Below the pieces are notes generated by a model. That model was not told the origin of the DNA. It did no database searches and was given only the letters and a program-made list of their open reading frames with translations. Shown here piece by piece: positions 8,201 through 17,031 of a stretch of 64,000 nt of DNA (its first letter is position 1; each line of letters begins with the position of its first letter). The position numbers and the translations under genes are program-made. This DNA comes from Escherichia coli (GTDB taxonomy: Bacteria; Pseudomonadota; Gammaproteobacteria; Enterobacterales; Enterobacteriaceae). The stretch lies in NCBI RefSeq assembly GCF_022846255.1, contig NZ_AP025682.1. One strand, written 5' to 3'.

Positions 8201-10480
8201 ATGAAGAAAAAAATTGAATCCTACCAGGGAGCTGCCGGTGGTTGGGGTGCTGTTAAATCCGTAGCGAATGCAGTACGTAAGCAGATGGATATACGCCAGG
8301 ATGTTATTGCCATGTTTGACATGAATAAGCCAGAGGGCTTTGACTGTCCGGGATGTGCATGGCCAGATCCTAAGCACAGTGCGTCATTCGACATTTGTGA
8401 AAACGGCGCAAAAGCAATCGCCTGGGAAGCCACGGATAAGCAGGTAAATGCCTCTTTCTTTGCTGAGAATACGGTTCAATCATTACTTACCTGGGGAGAT
8501 CACGAGCTTGAGGCTGCGGGACGTCTCACTCAGCCTTTGAAATATGATGACGTCAGCGACTGTTACAAGCTATTAAGCTGGCAACAAGCTTTCGACGAAA
8601 TTGGCGAACGCCTTCAAAGCTATAGTGATCCCAATCAGGTTGAATTCTATACTTCGGGCCGCACTTCCAATGAAGCTGCCTTTCTTTATCAGCTTTTTGC
8701 CCGTGAATACGGGAGCAATAACTTCCCCGACTGCTCCAACATGTGCCATGAACCGACCAGTGTGGGTTTGGCAGCGAGTATCGGTGTAGGTAAAGGGACC
8801 GTGTTGCTGGAAGACTTTGAGAAATGCGATTTAGTCATTTGCATTGGGCATAACCCTGGTACAAACCACCCTCGCATGTTGACTTCGTTGCGCGCTTTAG
8901 TGAAACGGGGAGCGAAAATGATCGCCATCAATCCTCTACAGGAACGTGGCCTGGAGCGATTTACCGCACCGCAAAACCCGTTTGAAATGCTGACGAACTC
9001 TGAGACTCAGTTGGCCAGTGCCTACTACAACGTGCGCATTGGTGGTGATATGGCGTTGCTCAAGGGGATGATGCGCCTGTTAATTGAGCGCGATGATGCT
9101 GCAAGCGCCGCAGGTCGGCCCTCATTGCTGGATGACGAATTTATTCAAACGCATACCGTCGGCTTTGACGAGCTACGCCGTGACGTGCTCAATTCCGAGT
9201 GGAAAGATATCGAACGTATTTCTGGATTAAGTCAGACTCAAATCGCCGAACTGGCTGATGCATATGCCGCTGCCGAACGCACCATTATCTGTTACGGAAT
9301 GGGGATCACTCAGCACGAACATGGTACCCAGAATGTACAGCAACTGGTCAATCTGCTGTTGATGAAAGGTAACATTGGCAAGCCTGGTGCGGGTATCTGC
9401 CCACTACGAGGTCACTCTAATGTACAGGGCGACCGAACCGTCGGTATCACCGAGAAACCGTCTGCAGAGTTTCTGGCTCGCCTGGGTGAGCGCTATGGTT
9501 TCACCCCACCTCATGCACCTGGACATGCTGCAATTGCCAGCATGCAAGCAATATGTACGGGGCAGGCTCGCGCATTGATCTGCATGGGGGGCAACTTTGC
9601 ACTGGCAATGCCAGATCGGGAAGCGAGCGCTGTACCGTTAACGCAATTAGATCTGGCGGTACACGTTGCCACTAAGCTTAACCGCTCTCATCTGCTGACC
9701 GCACGGCATAGCTATATTCTGCCGGTTCTGGGACGTAGCGAGATTGACATGCAAAAAAGCGGTGCGCAGGCGGTAACCGTTGAAGATTCAATGTCGATGA
9801 TTCATGCCTCGCGTGGTGTGTTAAAACCCGCCGGTGTAATGCTGAAATCAGAGTGTGCAGTGGTCGCGGGAATCGCGCAAGCAGCACTACCCCAGAGCGT
9901 GGTAGCCTGGGAGTATCTGGTGGAAGATTATGATCGCATTCGCAATGACATTGAAGCTGTGCTGCCAGAGTTTGCCGACTATAACCAGCGCATCCGTCAT
10001 CCTGGTGGTTTTCACCTGATAAACGCAGCAGCTGAAAGGCGCTGGATGACGTCGTCAGGTAAGGCTAATTTCATTACCAGTAAAGGGCTGTTAGAAGATC
10101 CCTCTTCAGCGTTTAACAGTAAGCTGGTCATGGCGACAGTACGCAGTCACGATCAGTACAACACGACGATTTATGGTATGGATGATCGCTATCGAGGGGT
10201 ATTCGGTCAACGAGATGTGGTCTTTATGAGTGCTAAACAAGCTAAAATTTGCCGTGTAAAAAACGGCGAAAGAGTTAATCTTATTGCACTCACGCCAGAC
10301 GGTAAACGTAGCTCACGCCGCATGGATAGATTAAAAGTGGTCATTTACCCTATGGCTGACCGCTCACTGGTGACCTATTTTCCAGAATCGAATCACATGC
10401 TAACACTTGATAACCACGATCCATTAAGTGGCATTCCTGGCTATAAAAGTATTCCGGTTGAATTAGAACCATCAAATTAA
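8201..10480 (+). CDS. ydeP: Acid-resistance molybdopterin oxidoreductase (formate dehydrogenase-like, FdhF family)
   Basis: 759-aa ORF matching YdeP length and sequence; no in-frame TGA. Confidence 0.92.
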
Positions 10481-10598
10481 TTCGCCTCCTCATTTCTTCT
10501 GCTGTCATCCGCACAGCAGAAGAATTCCTCATTGACTATTATCGCGCAATTTGCTCACATGGATTAAATTAAACCACACACTATAAGATATAAACTTC

Positions 10599-10616
10599 TG
10601 CCTACAGCTGTAAGAA
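10599..10616 (+). promoter_or_regulatory. EvgA box upstream of safA-ydeO
   Basis: TGCCTACA-GC-TGTAAGAA matches the EvgA consensus. Confidence 0.6.
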
Positions 10617-10727
10617 ACTCCGCTCAGTACTGAAGTACCCGTCCTATTTCCTCTATTCTCCAGCCTGTTATATTAAGCATACTGATTAACGATGCTTAAC
10701 GTCATTCGTTTAATAAACACATTTGAA

Positions 10728-10925
10728 ATGCATGCGACCATAGTGAAAAATAAAATCACGCAAAGAGACAACTATAAAGGGATCATGTCTGTAATTGTGG
10801 TTGTCTTATTACTGACCCTTACATTGATAGCCATTTTTTCGGCAATTGATCAGCTGGGTATTTCAGAAATGGGTCGCATTGCAAGGGATCTTACACATTT
10901 CATTATCAATAGTTTGCAAGACTGA
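10728..10925 (+). CDS. safA: SafA, small membrane connector between the EvgS/EvgA and PhoQ/PhoP two-component systems
   Basis: 65-aa product MHATIVKNKITQRDNYKGIMS…THFIINSLQD with one TM segment; directly upstream of ydeO. Confidence 0.85.
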   Translation: MHATIVKNKITQRDNYKGIMSVIVVVLLLTLTLIAIFSAIDQLGISEMGRIARDLTHFIINSLQD

Positions 10926-11000
10926 AAAATAAACAGCAAATTATAAATATGAAATGTTAAAAAAGTATCGATAAAAACTTTATTGTTTTAAGGAGATAAA

Positions 11001-11762
11001 ATGTCGCTCGTTTGTTCTGTTATATTTATTCATCATGCCTTCAACGCTAACATTTTAGATAAAGATTACGCCTTCTCTGACGGCGAGATCCTGATGGTAG
11101 ATAACGCTGTTCGTACGCATTTTGAACCTTATGAGCGGCATTTTAAAGAAATCGGATTTAATGAAAATACCATTAAAAAATATCTACAATGCACTAACAT
11201 CCAGACAGTGACGGTGCCTGTTCCTGCGAAGTTTTTACGTGCTTCAAATGTACCGACTGGATTGCTTAATGAAATGATTGCTTATCTCAACTCGGAAGAA
11301 CGCAATCATCATAATTTTTCAGAACTTTTGCTTTTTTCTTGCCTGTCTATTTTTGCCGCATGCAAAGGTTTCATTACACTATTAACTAACGGTGTGCTAT
11401 CCGTTTCCGGGAAAGTGAGAAATATTGTCAACATGAAGCTGGCGCACCCATGGAAGCTGAAAGATATTTGTGACTGCCTGTACATCAGTGAAAGCCTGTT
11501 GAAGAAAAAACTAAAGCAAGAGCAAACGACATTCTCACAGATTCTTTTAGATGCCAGAATGCAGCACGCAAAAAATTTGATACGCGTAGAAGGTTCAGTC
11601 AATAAAATTGCCGAACAATGTGGTTATGCGAGTACATCTTATTTTATTTATGCGTTCCGCAAACATTTCGGCAACAGTCCAAAGAGAGTTTCTAAGGAGT
11701 ACCGTTGTCAAAGGCACACGGGTATGAACACGGATAACAAGATGAGTGCTTTAGCTATTTGA
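11001..11762 (+). CDS. ydeO: AraC-family acid-resistance regulator
   Basis: 253 aa with C-terminal AraC HTH; position after safA. Confidence 0.9.
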   Translation: MSLVCSVIFIHHAFNANILDKDYAFSDGEILMVDNAVRTHFEPYERHFKEIGFNENTIKKYLQCTNIQTVTVPVPAKFLRASNVPTGLLNEMIAYLNSEERNHHNFSELLLFSCLSIFAACKGFITLLTNGVLSVSGKVRNIVNMKLAHPWKLKDICDCLYISESLLKKKLKQEQTTFSQILLDARMQHAKNLIRVEGSVNKIAEQCGYASTSYFIYAFRKHFGNSPKRVSKEYRCQRHTGMNTDNKMSALAI

Positions 11763-11810
11763 TTATTTGCTAACGAGTAGTCAACCACACACGCTGCGTA
11801 AGAATTAAAT

Positions 11811-11842
11811 GGGGCAGCCATTCCCTGCCCCGCGTTGTTTTT
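11811..11842 (+). terminator. Rho-independent terminator after ydeO
   Basis: ggggcag-ccattc-cctgcccc hairpin followed by gcgttgttttt. Confidence 0.7.
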
Positions 11843-12163
11843 AGGTGATATATTTCTTGAAATAAATAAGTGACAGCCATCACATATTTATGCATTTGCA
11901 TAACCCGTTGCATGATTATTTATGATCTCAATTCGGTATTTTGTCGGTAAAATTCAATAATTTGTTAAATATCAATAGATTAGTTGTTTATCAACGAGAA
12001 TTTACTTAGTAGAACAGAAAGTAATGTCAACAGTTTATGGACTGTTATTTCTCTTTTTTTAGCTAAATCTGCTATCTATTTATGTGACTAACTTCACTTA
12101 CATTAACTTATTTCTCTTCGTAAAATTACTTTGGAATTAAGTACAATAAGAAGAGGAACATTT

Positions 12164-13846
12164 ATGAAGTCTGCATTAAAGAAAAGTGTCGTAAGTACCT
12201 CGATATCTTTGATACTGGCATCTGGTATGGCTGCATTTGCTGCTCATGCGGCAGATGATGTAAAGCTGAAAGCAACCAAAACAAACGTTGCTTTCTCAGA
12301 CTTTACGCCGACTGAATACAGTACCAAAGGAAAGCCAAATATTATCGTACTGACCATGGATGATCTTGGTTATGGACAACTTCCTTTTGATAAGGGATCT
12401 TTTGACCCAAAAACAATGGAAAATCGTGAAGTTGTCGATACCTACAAAATAGGGATAGATAAAGCCATTGAAGCTGCGCAAAAATCAACGCCGACGCTCC
12501 TTTCATTAATGGATGAAGGCGTACGTTTTACTAACGGCTATGTGGCGCACGGTGTTTCCGGCCCCTCCCGCGCCGCAATAATGACCGGTCGAGCGCCCGC
12601 CCGCTTTGGTGTCTATTCCAATACCGATGCTCAGGATGGTATTCCGCTAACAGAAACTTTCTTGCCTGAATTATTCCAGAATCATGGTTATTACACTGCA
12701 GCAGTAGGTAAATGGCACTTGTCAAAAATCAGTAATGTGCCGGTACCGGAAGATAAACAAACGCGTGACTATCATGACAACTTCACCACATTTTCTGCGG
12801 AAGAATGGCAACCTCAAAACCGTGGCTTTGATTACTTTATGGGATTCCACGCTGCAGGAACGGCATATTACAACTCCCCTTCACTGTTCAAAAACCGTGA
12901 ACGCGTCCCCGCAAAAGGTTATATCAGCGATCAGTTAACCGATGAGGCAATTGGCGTTGTTGATCGTGCCAAAACACTTGACCAGCCTTTTATGCTTTAC
13001 CTGGCTTATAATGCTCCGCACCTGCCAAATGATAATCCTGCACCGGAGCAATATCAGAAGCAATTTAATACCGGTAGTCAAACAGCAGATAACTACTACG
13101 CTTCCGTTTATTCTGTTGATCAGGGTGTAAAACGCATTCTCGAACAACTGAAGAAAAACGGACAGTATGACAATACTATTATTCTCTTTACCTCCGATAA
13201 TGGTGCGGTTATCGATGGTCCTCTGCCGCTGAACGGGGCGCAAAAAGGCTATAAGAGTCAGACCTATCCTGGCGGTACTCACACCCCAATGTTTATATGG
13301 TGGAAAGGAAAACTTCAACCCGGTAATTATGACAAGCTGATTTCCGCAATGGATTTCTACCCGACAGCTCTTGATGCAGCCGATATCAGCATTCCAAAAG
13401 ACCTTAAGCTGGATGGCGTATCCTTGCTGCCGTGGTTGCAAGATAAGAAACAAGGCGAGCCACATAAAAATCTGACCTGGATAACCTCTTATTCTCACTG
13501 GTTTGATGAAGAGAATATTCCCTTCTGGGATAATTACCACAAATTTGTCCGCCATCAGTCAGACGATTACCCGCATAACCCCAACACCGAGGACTTAAGC
13601 CAATTCTCTTATACGGTGAGAAATAACGATTATTCGCTTGTCTATACAGTAGAAAACAATCAGTTAGGTCTATACAAACTGACGGATCTACAGCAAAAAG
13701 ATAACATTGCCGCCGCCAATCCGCAGGTCGTTAAAGAGATGCAAGGCGTGGTAAGAGAGTTTATCGACAGCAGCCAACCACCACTTAGCGAGGTAAATCA
13801 GGAGAAGTTTAACAATATCAAGAAAGCACTAAGCGAAGCGAAATAA
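12164..13846 (+). CDS. ydeN: Ser-type sulfatase (periplasmic)
   Basis: 560 aa with signal peptide; sulfatase signature S-x-P-x-R seen as VSGPSRAAIMTGR. Confidence 0.9.
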   Translation: MKSALKKSVVSTSISLILASGMAAFAAHAADDVKLKATKTNVAFSDFTPTEYSTKGKPNIIVLTMDDLGYGQLPFDKGSFDPKTMENREVVDTYKIGIDKAIEAAQKSTPTLLSLMDEGVRFTNGYVAHGVSGPSRAAIMTGRAPARFGVYSNTDAQDGIPLTETFLPELFQNHGYYTAAVGKWHLSKISNVPVPEDKQTRDYHDNFTTFSAEEWQPQNRGFDYFMGFHAAGTAYYNSPSLFKNRERVPAKGYISDQLTDEAIGVVDRAKTLDQPFMLYLAYNAPHLPNDNPAPEQYQKQFNTGSQTADNYYASVYSVDQGVKRILEQLKKNGQYDNTIILFTSDNGAVIDGPLPLNGAQKGYKSQTYPGGTHTPMFIWWKGKLQPGNYDKLISAMDFYPTALDAADISIPKDLKLDGVSLLPWLQDKKQGEPHKNLTWITSYSHWFDEENIPFWDNYHKFVRHQSDDYPHNPNTEDLSQFSYTVRNNDYSLVYTVENNQLGLYKLTDLQQKDNIAAANPQVVKEMQGVVREFIDSSQPPLSEVNQEKFNNIKKALSEAK

Positions 13847-13858
13847 CTAAACCTTCAT

Positions 13859-13886
13859 GCGGCGGATTTTTCCGCCGCCTTATTGA
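13859..13886 (+). terminator. Stem-loop between ydeN and ydeM (terminator or attenuator)
   Basis: gcggcggatttttccgccgcc hairpin; weak T-tract. Confidence 0.45.
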
Positions 13887-13897
13887 GCGAGATAGCG

Positions 13898-15055
13898 ATG
13901 CACGTTACAGCCAAGCCCTCCAGTTTTCAATGTAATCTCAAATGTGATTACTGTTTTTACCTTGAAAAAGAGTCGCAGTTTACTCATGAAAAATGGATGG
14001 ATGACAGCACTCTGAAAGAGTTCATCAAACAATATATCGCAGCGTCTGGCAATCAGGTCTATTTTACCTGGCAAGGCGGTGAACCCACTCTGGCTGGCCT
14101 GGATTTTTTCCGTAAAGTTATTCACTATCAACAACGCTATGCAGGCCAAAAACGTATTTTTAATGCATTACAAACGAATGGCATTTTATTGAATAATGAA
14201 TGGTGTGCCTTTCTCAAAGAACATGAGTTTCTGGTTGGTATCTCGATCGATGGACCCCAAGAACTACATGACCGCTACAGACGCAGTAATTCAGGTAACG
14301 GTACTTTTGCAAAAGTGATAGCAGCCATCGAGCGTCTGAAATCATATCAAATAGAGTTTAATACGTTAACTGTCATTAATAACATTAATGTCCATTACCC
14401 TCTTGAGGTTTATCATTTTTTAAAATCTATCGGCAGTAAACATATGCAATTTATCGAATTGCTCGAAACCGGGACGCCGAATATTGATTTCAGTGGTCAT
14501 AGTGAGAACACATTCCGTATCATTGATTTTTCTGTGCCTCCCACGGCTTATGGCAAGTTTATGTCAACCATTTTTATGCGATGGGTTAAAAACGATGTGG
14601 GTGAAATTTTCATCCGTCAGTTTGAAAGCTTTGTCAGCCGTTTTTTGGGGAATGGGCATACCAGTTGTATTTTCCAGGAGTCCTGCAAGGATAATCTGGT
14701 TGTTGAAAGTAATGGAGACATTTACGAATGCGACCATTTTGTCTATCCACAGTACAAAATTGGAAACATTAATAAATCGGAACTCAAAACGATGAACAGT
14801 GTACAACTGACAGCGCAAAAAAAACGGATTTCAGCCAAATGTCAGCAATGTGTATATAAACCTATCTGCAATGGTGGTTGCCCTAAGCATCGTATTACTA
14901 AAGTAAACAATGAGACTGTTTCCTATTTTTGCGAAGGTTATAAAATCCTTTTTTCAACCATGGTACCTTATATGAACGCCATGGTGGAGTTAGCTAAGAA
15001 CAGAGTACCGCTTTACCACATTATGGATGTTGCAAAACAAATGGAGAATAATTAA
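13898..15055 (+). CDS. ydeM: Radical-SAM anaerobic sulfatase-maturating enzyme homologue
   Basis: CxxxCxxC radical-SAM motif ([10 protein letters not shown]) and C-terminal Cys clusters; ~385 aa. Confidence 0.9.
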
Positions 15056-15108
15056 TAACGCTCCCCCTTAGCTCCATTCTTAGCCTCCTTCTTATGACCT
15101 TAACAAGG

Positions 15109-15140
15109 CACCCGACATAAATTCCTGTCGGGTGTTTCGT
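15109..15140 (+). terminator. Rho-independent terminator after ydeM
   Basis: cacccgaca-taaattcc-tgtcgggtg followed by tttcg. Confidence 0.6.
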
Positions 15141-15345
15141 CTTCATCATCTTCCTTTGCGAAAATCCTGGCTTACGAGGTATGCGTCAGGGCATTAGCAA
15201 TACCCTTGATTATCAATAGTATAACCATAACCACTGAAAATTAAATATTTCTTTATATTTCATATTGTTAAATGATACTTAAATAAATTTCATCAGTATA
15301 TCATTGCCATAGATAATCATTGGGTGGCACAATCAATTTTCGCTA

Positions 15346-17031
15346 ATGATAACCATTCCCATTACGTTTTGTATGTTGATAGCAAAGTATCTCTGTCTGC
15401 TGAAGCCCTTTTGGCTGCGTAAGAATAATAAAACTTCAGTGTTGTTAATCATTATTATCCTCGCCATGATCCTTGGCGTGGTTAAAATTCAGGTCTGGTT
15501 AAACGACTGGAATAATGATTTTTTCAATGCGCTAAGCCAGAAAGAAACTGATAAGCTTTGGCAGCTTGTCCTTTGGTTCCCTGCCCTGCTGGGGATCTTT
15601 GTATTAATATCCGTAAACAAAACATGGTTAATTAAACTACTGACTATTCGCTGGCGCGAATGGTTAACAGATTACTACCTTAATCGCTGGTTTGCAGATA
15701 AAAACTACTACTTCACGCAGATCTACGGCGAGCATAAAAATACAGATAACCCTGACCAACGTATCGCTGAAGACATTCTCTTACTGATCAGCAAAACGCT
15801 CAGCCTTTCATTTGGCTTCATCCAGTCACTTAGCATGCTGATCACCTTTACCGTTATTCTTTGGCAAAGCGCGGGTACGCTCTCATTCACTGTTGGTGGA
15901 ACTGAATGGAGTATCCAGGGGTATATGGTCTATACCGTCGTGCTCATTGTGATCGGTGGAACTTTATTTACCCATAAGGTTGGTAAACGTATTCGTCCAC
16001 TTAATGTGGAAAAACAACGTAGCGAAGCGACATTTCGAACTAATCTTGTGCAGCATAATAAGCAGGCAGAACTGATTGCGCTAAGCAATGCTGAGTCTCT
16101 ACAACGCCAGGAGTTGAGCGAAAATTTTCATACCACTAAAGAGAACTGGCATCGTTTAATGAATCGTCAGCGGTGGCTTGATTACTGGCAGAATATTTAT
16201 TCGCGCTCGCTTAGCGTTCTTCCCTACTTTCTGTTATTGCCGCAGTTTATTAGCGGGCAGATCAATCTGGGCGGACTGATGAAATCGCGCCAGGCATTTA
16301 TGCTGGTATCGAACAATTTAAGCTGGTTTATTTATAAATATGATGAACTTGCTGAACTGGCTGCGGTTATCGATCGCTTGTATGAGTTCCATCAACTCAC
16401 CGAACAGCGCCCTACGAATAAGCCTAAAAATTGTCAACATGCGGTACAAGTGGCTGACGCGAGTATTCGTACTCCTGATAATAAGATCATATTAGAGAAC
16501 CTGAACTTTCATGTTTCGCCAGGCAAATGGCTATTGCTGAAAGGTTACTCTGGTGCGGGAAAAACCACACTGCTTAAAACATTATCCCACTGCTGGCCGT
16601 GGTTTAAAGGTGATATTTCTTCTCCTGCTGACAGTTGGTATGTGTCACAAACACCGTTAATCAAAACCGGCTTACTGAAAGAGATTATTTGTAAAGCACT
16701 TCCCCTGTCCGTAGACGATAAATCGTTGAGCGAAGTACTGCATCAGGTTGGTCTGGGGAAATTGGCTGCGCGTATTCATGATCACGATCGCTGGGGAGAT
16801 ATTCTTTCCAGCGGCGAAAAACAACGTATCGCCCTGGCTCGATTAATTTTACGACGTCCGAAATGGATATTTCTTGACGAAACTACCTCTCATCTTGAGG
16901 AACAAGAGGCAATCCGCTTACTGCGTTTAGTGCGAGAAAAACTCCCCACAAGCGGCGTCATTATGGTTACACATCAACCCGGTGTCTGGAACCTGGTCGA
17001 TGATATTTGTGACATTAGCGCGGTTATATAA
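15346..17031 (+). CDS. yddA: Fused ABC transporter permease/ATPase
   Basis: 561 aa; N-terminal TM domain, C-terminal Walker A (GYSGAGKTT) and ABC signature (LSSGEKQR). Confidence 0.9.
   Translation: MITIPITFCMLIAKYLCLLKPFWLRKNNKTSVLLIIIILAMILGVVKIQVWLNDWNNDFFNALSQKETDKLWQLVLWFPALLGIFVLISVNKTWLIKLLTIRWREWLTDYYLNRWFADKNYYFTQIYGEHKNTDNPDQRIAEDILLLISKTLSLSFGFIQSLSMLITFTVILWQSAGTLSFTVGGTEWSIQGYMVYTVVLIVIGGTLFTHKVGKRIRPLNVEKQRSEATFRTNLVQHNKQAELIALSNAESLQRQELSENFHTTKENWHRLMNRQRWLDYWQNIYSRSLSVLPYFLLLPQFISGQINLGGLMKSRQAFMLVSNNLSWFIYKYDELAELAAVIDRLYEFHQLTEQRPTNKPKNCQHAVQVADASIRTPDNKIILENLNFHVSPGKWLLLKGYSGAGKTTLLKTLSHCWPWFKGDISSPADSWYVSQTPLIKTGLLKEIICKALPLSVDDKSLSEVLHQVGLGKLAARIHDHDRWGDILSSGEKQRIALARLILRRPKWIFLDETTSHLEEQEAIRLLRLVREKLPTSGVIMVTHQPGVWNLVDDICDISAVI

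Follow-up and report, generated by a model that had tools for sequence, protein, structure and literature searches.

The genes ydeN and ydeM of Escherichia coli very probably form a two-gene operon in which a periplasmic Ser-type formylglycine sulfatase is encoded together with a cytoplasmic radical-SAM maturase; what is shown directly is that the two proteins belong to the respective families, that the key residues are in place, that the pair is conserved and that both genes are under purifying selection. The two genes lie in a stretch of 64,000 nucleotides (the window), which is ordinary E. coli chromosome with the standard surrounding gene order ydeP-safA-ydeO-ydeN-ydeM-yddA-yddB-pqqL. The ydeN frame (12164-13846, + strand) starts with the ATG at 12164 and encodes a 560-aa precursor of an S1-family formylglycine-dependent sulfatase, predicted to be of the Ser type and named ydeN in RefSeq. 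A longer frame with a TTG start at 12131 can be read, but it is the ATG at 12164 that has the Shine-Dalgarno sequence AAGAGGA before it. After a spacer of 51 nt, the ydeM frame (13898-15055, + strand; 15055 is the final base of the stop codon) encodes a 385-aa homologue of radical-SAM/SPASM anaerobic sulfatase-maturating enzymes (anSMEs) that has no signal peptide. Both frames are intact and co-oriented, as an earlier note on this DNA had claimed. Compared with K-12, YdeN is 99% identical to b1498 (3 substitutions, none catalytic) and YdeM is 99% identical to b1497 (5 substitutions, none at a cluster-ligand position). Among 5426 complete E. coli genomes, 5373 match the 2.9-kb stretch with both genes and 5322 have a match that spans 80% or more of it; in the matched genomes ydeN is annotated as a sulfatase-like hydrolase/transferase and ydeM as an anaerobic sulfatase maturase.

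That the pair consists of a sulfatase and an anaerobic maturase is already described in RefSeq ('putative sulfatase YdeN', 'putative anaerobic sulfatase maturation enzyme YdeM') and in the literature. The literature has treated aslB and ydeM as the two putative anSMEs of E. coli since 2007, the year in which they were reportedly examined as such by Benjdia et al. What is new here is the behaviour of the pair as a portable two-gene unit, together with an inter-gene hairpin that is kept in the gammaproteobacterial copies.

It had been proposed from the letters of the DNA that YdeN carries the motif S-G-P-S-R, with a serine where Cys-type sulfatases carry a cysteine. YdeN matches the Pfam Sulfatase domain PF00884 over residues 58-408 and the full model 1-301 (E 7.6e-71; 239 bits against a cut-off of 25), and the signature V-S-G-P-S-R-A-A-I-M-T-G-R (VSGPSRAAIMTGR, 12554-12592, + strand) occupies residues 131-143. 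When YdeN was aligned to solved structures, AHGV-S-GPSRAAIMTGR was placed on AHPF-C-GPSRAALMTGR of 6bia, and S132-G-P-S-R136 over C-G-P-S-R of both 6bia and 9hh3. Both parts of the proposal are borne out: the motif is found at residues 132-136, and Ser132 (codon TCC, 12557-12559), the predicted formylglycine precursor, stands in the column of the formylglycine-precursor Cys of these S1_19 sulfatases. A bare S-x-P-x-R could occur by chance in a protein of this size; the present motif lies inside the Sulfatase domain and column for column on the catalytic Cys of solved sulfatases. The sole visible alignment difference between the depositions 9hh3 (FCGPSR) and 9hh2 (FSGPSR) is at this residue, and we read them as one enzyme and its Cys-to-Ser active-site variant, which would mark the residue as the catalytic formylglycine precursor. 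In addition, D66/D67, R136, K183/H185, H286, D345/N346 and K364 of YdeN are identical to the aligned active-site residues of 6bia; the roles of the S1 metal-binding and catalytic residues (DD, K/H, H, DN and K) are those generally assigned in the family. The whole YdeN translation contains no Cys, and therefore no other residue could supply a Cys-derived formylglycine.

Conservation of the serine was seen at two depths. It is present at the signature in 118 of the 120 best YdeN homologues (to about 70% identity), the two exceptions being aberrant sequences that are unaligned over the motif, and also in all 18 loci of other species, down to 54% identity. The earlier note had held that an alignment placing the signature residue elsewhere would speak against it; in the alignment that was run, the residue keeps to the precursor column, all full-length relatives among the best 120 have Ser, and there is no substitute Cys. 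These results support the interpretation of a putative Ser-type sulfatase with a radical-SAM maturase beside it.

For ydeM, a CxxxCxxC motif and extra Cys clusters had been described, typical of anSMEs that are able to act on Ser-type substrates. YdeM scores 502.3 bits against TIGR03942 ('anaerobic sulfatase maturase'; curated equivalog cut-off 349.45) over model positions 1-362 of 363, and this is the only model that it passes, the anaerobic sulfatase-maturase models NF010308 and NF010321 both being under cut-off. It aligns with the anSME of Clostridium perfringens (anSMEcpe, 4K36) over residues 4-359 (E 1e-62), with the radical-SAM motif, GGEPTL, the eight auxiliary-cluster Cys and the C-D dipeptide at 278-279 all in register. 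The radical-SAM cluster motif C12-x3-C16-x2-C19 (C12-NLK-C16-DY-C19; 13931-13954, + strand) falls on CNLKCTYC of 4K36. Within the SPASM region (14666-14932, + strand; Pfam SPASM match, E 2.4e-6), Cys 257, 263, 278, 315, 318, 324, 328 and 345 are aligned to the ligands of the two auxiliary [4Fe-4S] clusters of anSMEcpe, C257/263/278/328 being equivalent to C255/261/276/330 and C315/318/324/345 to C317/320/326/348 (ligand numbering from PMC5682303). All 11 of these cluster Cys are invariant in 15 homologues, and the twelfth Cys of YdeM, C103, varies; 11 conserved Cys have been reported for AtsB and anSMEcpe (PMC2996862). The description of the cysteines is confirmed by C12/C16/C19 plus eight further Cys, and the anSME assignment, with its capacity for Ser-type substrates, is supported by TIGR03942, by the 3 + 8 Cys shared with 4K36 and by the adjacency of the two genes. 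YdeM and anSMEcpe (PDB 4K36-4K39) have all 11 cluster Cys in common, but their alignment columns are only partly identical, and anSMEcpe naturally acts on a Cys-type sulfatase whereas the neighbour of YdeM is Ser-type. Models of RiPP maturases (DynA, DarE, YhhB and similar) were also considered for YdeM and were all under cut-off.

It is highly improbable that Ser132 remains unconverted and its hydroxyl serves as the nucleophile, as in phosphatases of the alkaline-phosphatase superfamily, with YdeM modifying another target, for example a peptide. YdeN does have a secondary Pfam match to the phosphodiesterase family PF01663 (E 1.4e-7), and the sub-threshold RiPP maturase scores of YdeM are sizeable, e.g. 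219 bits for DynA. However, these scores are far under the respective cut-offs, no small precursor-peptide gene is conserved beside ydeM in the compared loci, and the full signature S-x-P-x-R-xxx-x-T-G-R is the recognition motif of anSMEs (PMC7771511). The strict adjacency of sulfatase and maturase across phyla would also be hard to account for.

This adjacency was analyzed by a locus scan with one genome per species, which gave 19 loci, 18 of them with sequence downstream of the sulfatase gene. In all 18 loci of other species a ydeM homologue (46-99% identity) lies directly downstream on the same strand, which supports a cognate enzyme-substrate pair. The loci come from Escherichia, Leminorella, Mixta, Citrobacter, Budvicia, Cedecea, Yersinia, Grimontia, Psychromonas, Anaerobiospirillum and Fusobacterium, the last being the farthest (54% identity). 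The genes flanking the pair are unrelated from genus to genus, so that the constant pair behaves as a self-contained two-gene unit. When ydeN and ydeM were compared with K-12, another Escherichia species and E. albertii, dN/dS was 0.014-0.045 and 0.039-0.085, respectively, which indicates that both genes are kept by strong purifying selection.

We consider it scarcely probable that YdeN is matured by AslB, or by an additional system, and that YdeM is redundant. It has been reported that anSMEs touch their substrate mainly via the peptide backbone and that one can serve many sulfatases (PMC7771511), and a third, unidentified formylglycine-forming system is suspected in E. coli (PMC8379841). However, the conserved tight linkage and the purifying selection on ydeM argue for a cognate maturase. 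To our knowledge, moreover, the third system has been shown only with Cys-type substrates. AslA/AslB is a second pair of sulfatase and anSME-like protein in the same species, and AslA is Cys-type. Against NF010308, a 412-position model of anaerobic sulfatase maturation that we take to represent the AslB type, YdeM reaches 358 bits with a cut-off of 484, and YdeM thus appears to be a distinct anSME lineage.

The chemistry, the order of compartments and the class of substrate of a YdeM-matured YdeN are inferred as follows. It is known that anSMEs oxidise Cys or Ser in (C/S)x(P/A)xR through abstraction of the C-beta hydrogen (PMC7771511). The N-terminus of YdeN reads as a putative Sec-type signal peptide (12164-12250, + strand), with MKSALKK, a hydrophobic core and a predicted cleavage site between AHA and ADD; there is no twin-arginine in this part of the translation. 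Since YdeM is without a signal peptide and YdeN has a predicted one, Ser132 would likely be oxidised in the cytoplasm on the unfolded precursor, and export and hydrolysis of the sulfate ester in the periplasm would follow. YdeM would bind the unfolded S-G-P-S-R segment of pre-YdeN ahead of Sec export, and the [4Fe-4S] cluster held by its CxxxCxxC motif would cleave SAM to give a 5'-deoxyadenosyl radical, which may take the C-beta hydrogen from Ser132. The two auxiliary [4Fe-4S] clusters would then remove an electron to leave the aldehyde, formylglycine. In exported YdeN, D66, D67, D345 and N346 would hold a divalent metal, and with this metal and the hydrated aldehyde the enzyme would hydrolyse the sulfate ester of a substrate that is most likely a sulfated sugar.

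The prototype Ser-type pair, AtsA/AtsB of Klebsiella pneumoniae, resembles ydeN-ydeM in the Ser of (C/S)xPxR, in an exported sulfatase (export being predicted for YdeN), and in a radical-SAM maturase that is encoded next to the sulfatase in the same orientation and has 11 conserved Cys and three [4Fe-4S] clusters. However, YdeN scores only 126 bits against NF010322, the arylsulfatase model of NCBIfam (cut-off 481), and is thus no orthologue of AtsA. In Klebsiella the gene order is atsB then atsA, whereas in ydeN-ydeM the sulfatase gene comes first, and the activity of AtsA/AtsB has been shown experimentally whereas YdeN/YdeM are known here from sequence. Work on Klebsiella AtsB is said to indicate that anaerobiosis may not be strictly needed in vivo.

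The best solved relatives of YdeN are S1_19 structures (6bia, 6b0j and 9hh2/9hh3; E 6e-52 to 3e-50, 175-180 bits, residues 109-436), followed at 138-151 bits by S1_16 carrageenan sulfatases and others that are presumably of the S1_7 type. Members of S1_19 are endo-4S-iota and endo-4S-kappa carrageenan sulfatases (PMC5066984), and the resemblance suggests that YdeN may act on a sulfated sugar. The active-site framework of YdeN is identical to that of the S1_19 enzymes, Pseudoalteromonas proteins that act as 4-O-sulfate carrageenan sulfatases; in contrast to YdeN, these are Cys-type (FCGPSR), marine and found in polysaccharide-utilisation contexts. YdeN is also longer than these by about 25-30 residues in the stretch from the DDLGY motif to residue 109, and past about residue 440 its C-terminal region is poorly matched. 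The NCBIfam equivalogs for arylsulfatase, choline sulfatase, PehA and Mn-arylsulfatase were all far under their cut-offs; since YdeN reaches the cut-off of none of the NCBIfam equivalogs, we assign it no specific activity. The neighbouring genes, different in every genus, gave no clue to the substrate, and the sole hint among them comes from one genome, that of Mixta theicola, where nan-like genes adjoin the pair. According to the literature YdeN has no known substrate, and use of mucin has been speculated in a gut-adaptation study (PMC10878103). The papers that we found report no biochemical data obtained directly on YdeN or YdeM of E. coli. The sulfatases of E. coli are poorly understood, and the central question is the substrate of YdeN and its physiological role; the invariant Ser, the portable unit, the inter-gene hairpin and the S1_19-like active site narrow the experiments on this role without answering it.

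A tentative extension of these results, which we regard as possible but rather doubtful, is that ydeN-ydeM forms a self-contained cassette for a Ser-type carbohydrate sulfatase that is horizontally portable. It is backed by the same two genes in the same order from Enterobacterales to Fusobacterium between unrelated flanks, and by the fact that the nearest solved relatives of YdeN are galactose-4-O-sulfatases. If it is true, E. coli in the anaerobic gut could remove sulfate from a sulfated glycan of host or dietary origin. The GC content is 44% for ydeN, 39% for ydeM and 31% for the upstream intergenic region, against 48% for the window, and this AT-rich composition is consistent with acquired, possibly silenced DNA.

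An improbable alternative is that E. coli retains the pair as a cryptic remnant which is transcriptionally silent and has no function today. The low GC is typical of silenced acquired DNA, neither a substrate nor a phenotype has been reported, and deletion of ydeN left azo-dye reduction unaffected (PMC10653809). ydeN was the one gene induced by a sulfonated azo dye (PMC10653809). On the other hand, the frames are intact in both the window and K-12, the region is widely matched among E. coli genomes, and the low dN/dS of both genes (0.01-0.09) reflects sustained purifying selection. We know of no arylsulfatase activity of E. coli K-12 in standard assays, which would suit a silent remnant. Against the main reading of a sulfatase with its maturase, the Klebsiella Ser-type sulfatase is said to need co-expressed Klebsiella atsB for activation in E. 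coli. This would mean that in laboratory culture the chromosomal ydeM is either silent or expressed too weakly, and the low-GC composition fits such putative silencing in laboratory conditions. A silent remnant is further contradicted by transcript or protein seen under gut-like or anaerobic conditions: besides the induction by the dye, ydeM and ydeN were co-transcribed and derepressed in an araC deletion strain (PMC10878103), and YdeN peptides were detected in O157 cultures in anaerobic rumen fluid (PMC3936929).

ydeN has been described as a direct target of AraC (PMC10878103, PMC3738151), which binds upstream of it only with arabinose (PMC3738151). The ydeO-ydeN intergenic region (11763-12163, + strand) contains the ydeO terminator hairpin followed by a T run (11810-11832, + strand) and a weak sigma-70-like match (12097-12126, + strand). 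A scan for the AraC half-site (TAGC-N7-TCCATA, at most 2 mismatches) gave 44 matches in the window, where 48 would be expected by chance, and no match upstream of ydeN, so that the reported site could not be located in this way.

Between ydeN and ydeM there is a hairpin (13859-13878, + strand) with a perfect 8-bp GC stem, GCGGCGGA-TTTT-TCCGCCGC, followed by a weak T tail, CTTATTG; the minimum free energy of the 76-nt region is -21 kcal/mol (z -2.5). Owing to its weak T tail, this hairpin was not called as a terminator in the promoter/terminator scan. All 15 gammaproteobacterial loci have a hairpin in the corresponding position, different in sequence and of about -18 kcal/mol or stronger, and in several of them a proper T run comes next; the three Fusobacterium loci lack such a hairpin. 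In E. albertii the stem shows a compensatory G:C to A:T change. The hairpin is a candidate leaky terminator or mRNA-stabilising element; it may keep the ratio of maturase to sulfatase low or make the ydeN message more stable. Because the 51-nt spacer leaves little room for a promoter after it, expression of ydeM probably depends on read-through. Were the pair indeed a portable cassette, the conserved leaky terminator could hold the maturase low relative to its substrate protein.

Between the sulfatase gene ydeN and the maturase gene ydeM lies a strong GC-rich hairpin (window positions 13859-13878). Such an intergenic hairpin was found in 15 of the 15 gammaproteobacterial sulfatase-gene loci, with L001, L003-L016 and L020 listed for this position. 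Its sequence varies from genus to genus, and in several of the gammaproteobacterial copies it is accompanied by a T run; at the same intergenic position, no hairpin was found in three Fusobacterium loci. The element may serve as a leaky terminator or stabilise the mRNA.

The gene pair is embedded in an AT-rich block of about 6 kb (10000-16000; 37-44% GC, versus 48% for the whole window), which takes in safA-ydeO-ydeN-ydeM and the start of yddA. The region downstream of ydeM (15056-40000) finds no closer counterpart in 5426 complete E. coli genomes than a match with just 98.2% identity across 25 kb, which falls into three pieces whose span is about 1.2 kb longer than the query. For ydeNM, by contrast, identity reaches 99.3% with strains IAI39 and CE10. 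The strain of the window seems to be a mosaic, or to belong to a lineage that has no representative among the complete genomes.

In Escherichia albertii (locus L004), DNA identity to the window is 85% for ydeN and 81% for ydeM, synonymous divergence is saturated (dS 1.4-1.8), and the flanking genes are not those of the window, which together suggest that the allele is old or that the pair was acquired separately. The pair also occurs on a contig binned to a 'Candidatus Nanosynbacter' metagenome-assembled genome (L003, JARKOR010000108.1), with products 98-99% identical to the E. coli proteins; this is very likely binning contamination. In the one Mixta theicola genome (L016, 245-4718), the cassette lies directly 3' of nanE-, nanT- and nanA-like genes, as judged from the gene N-termini. 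The nanE, nanT and nanA genes function in sialic-acid catabolism, and these neighbours, found beside the cassette in this single genome, hint weakly at host-glycan use.

A second Ser-type sulfatase resembling YdeN (77% identity, 565 aa) is present in some E. coli (L022, 6001-7698; proteins P0064-P0069 and P0072), with 303 member sequences in one cluster. Its gene adjoins a porin gene, with another sulfatase gene nearby, on contigs that stop short of where a maturase gene might appear.

On the minus strand, a 42-aa antisense ORF (15021-15149) overlaps ydeM by the 35 nt at the gene's 3' end. Its K-12 counterpart is the annotated small protein YneP (b4747), and the one in IAI39 is labelled 'hypothetical protein'.
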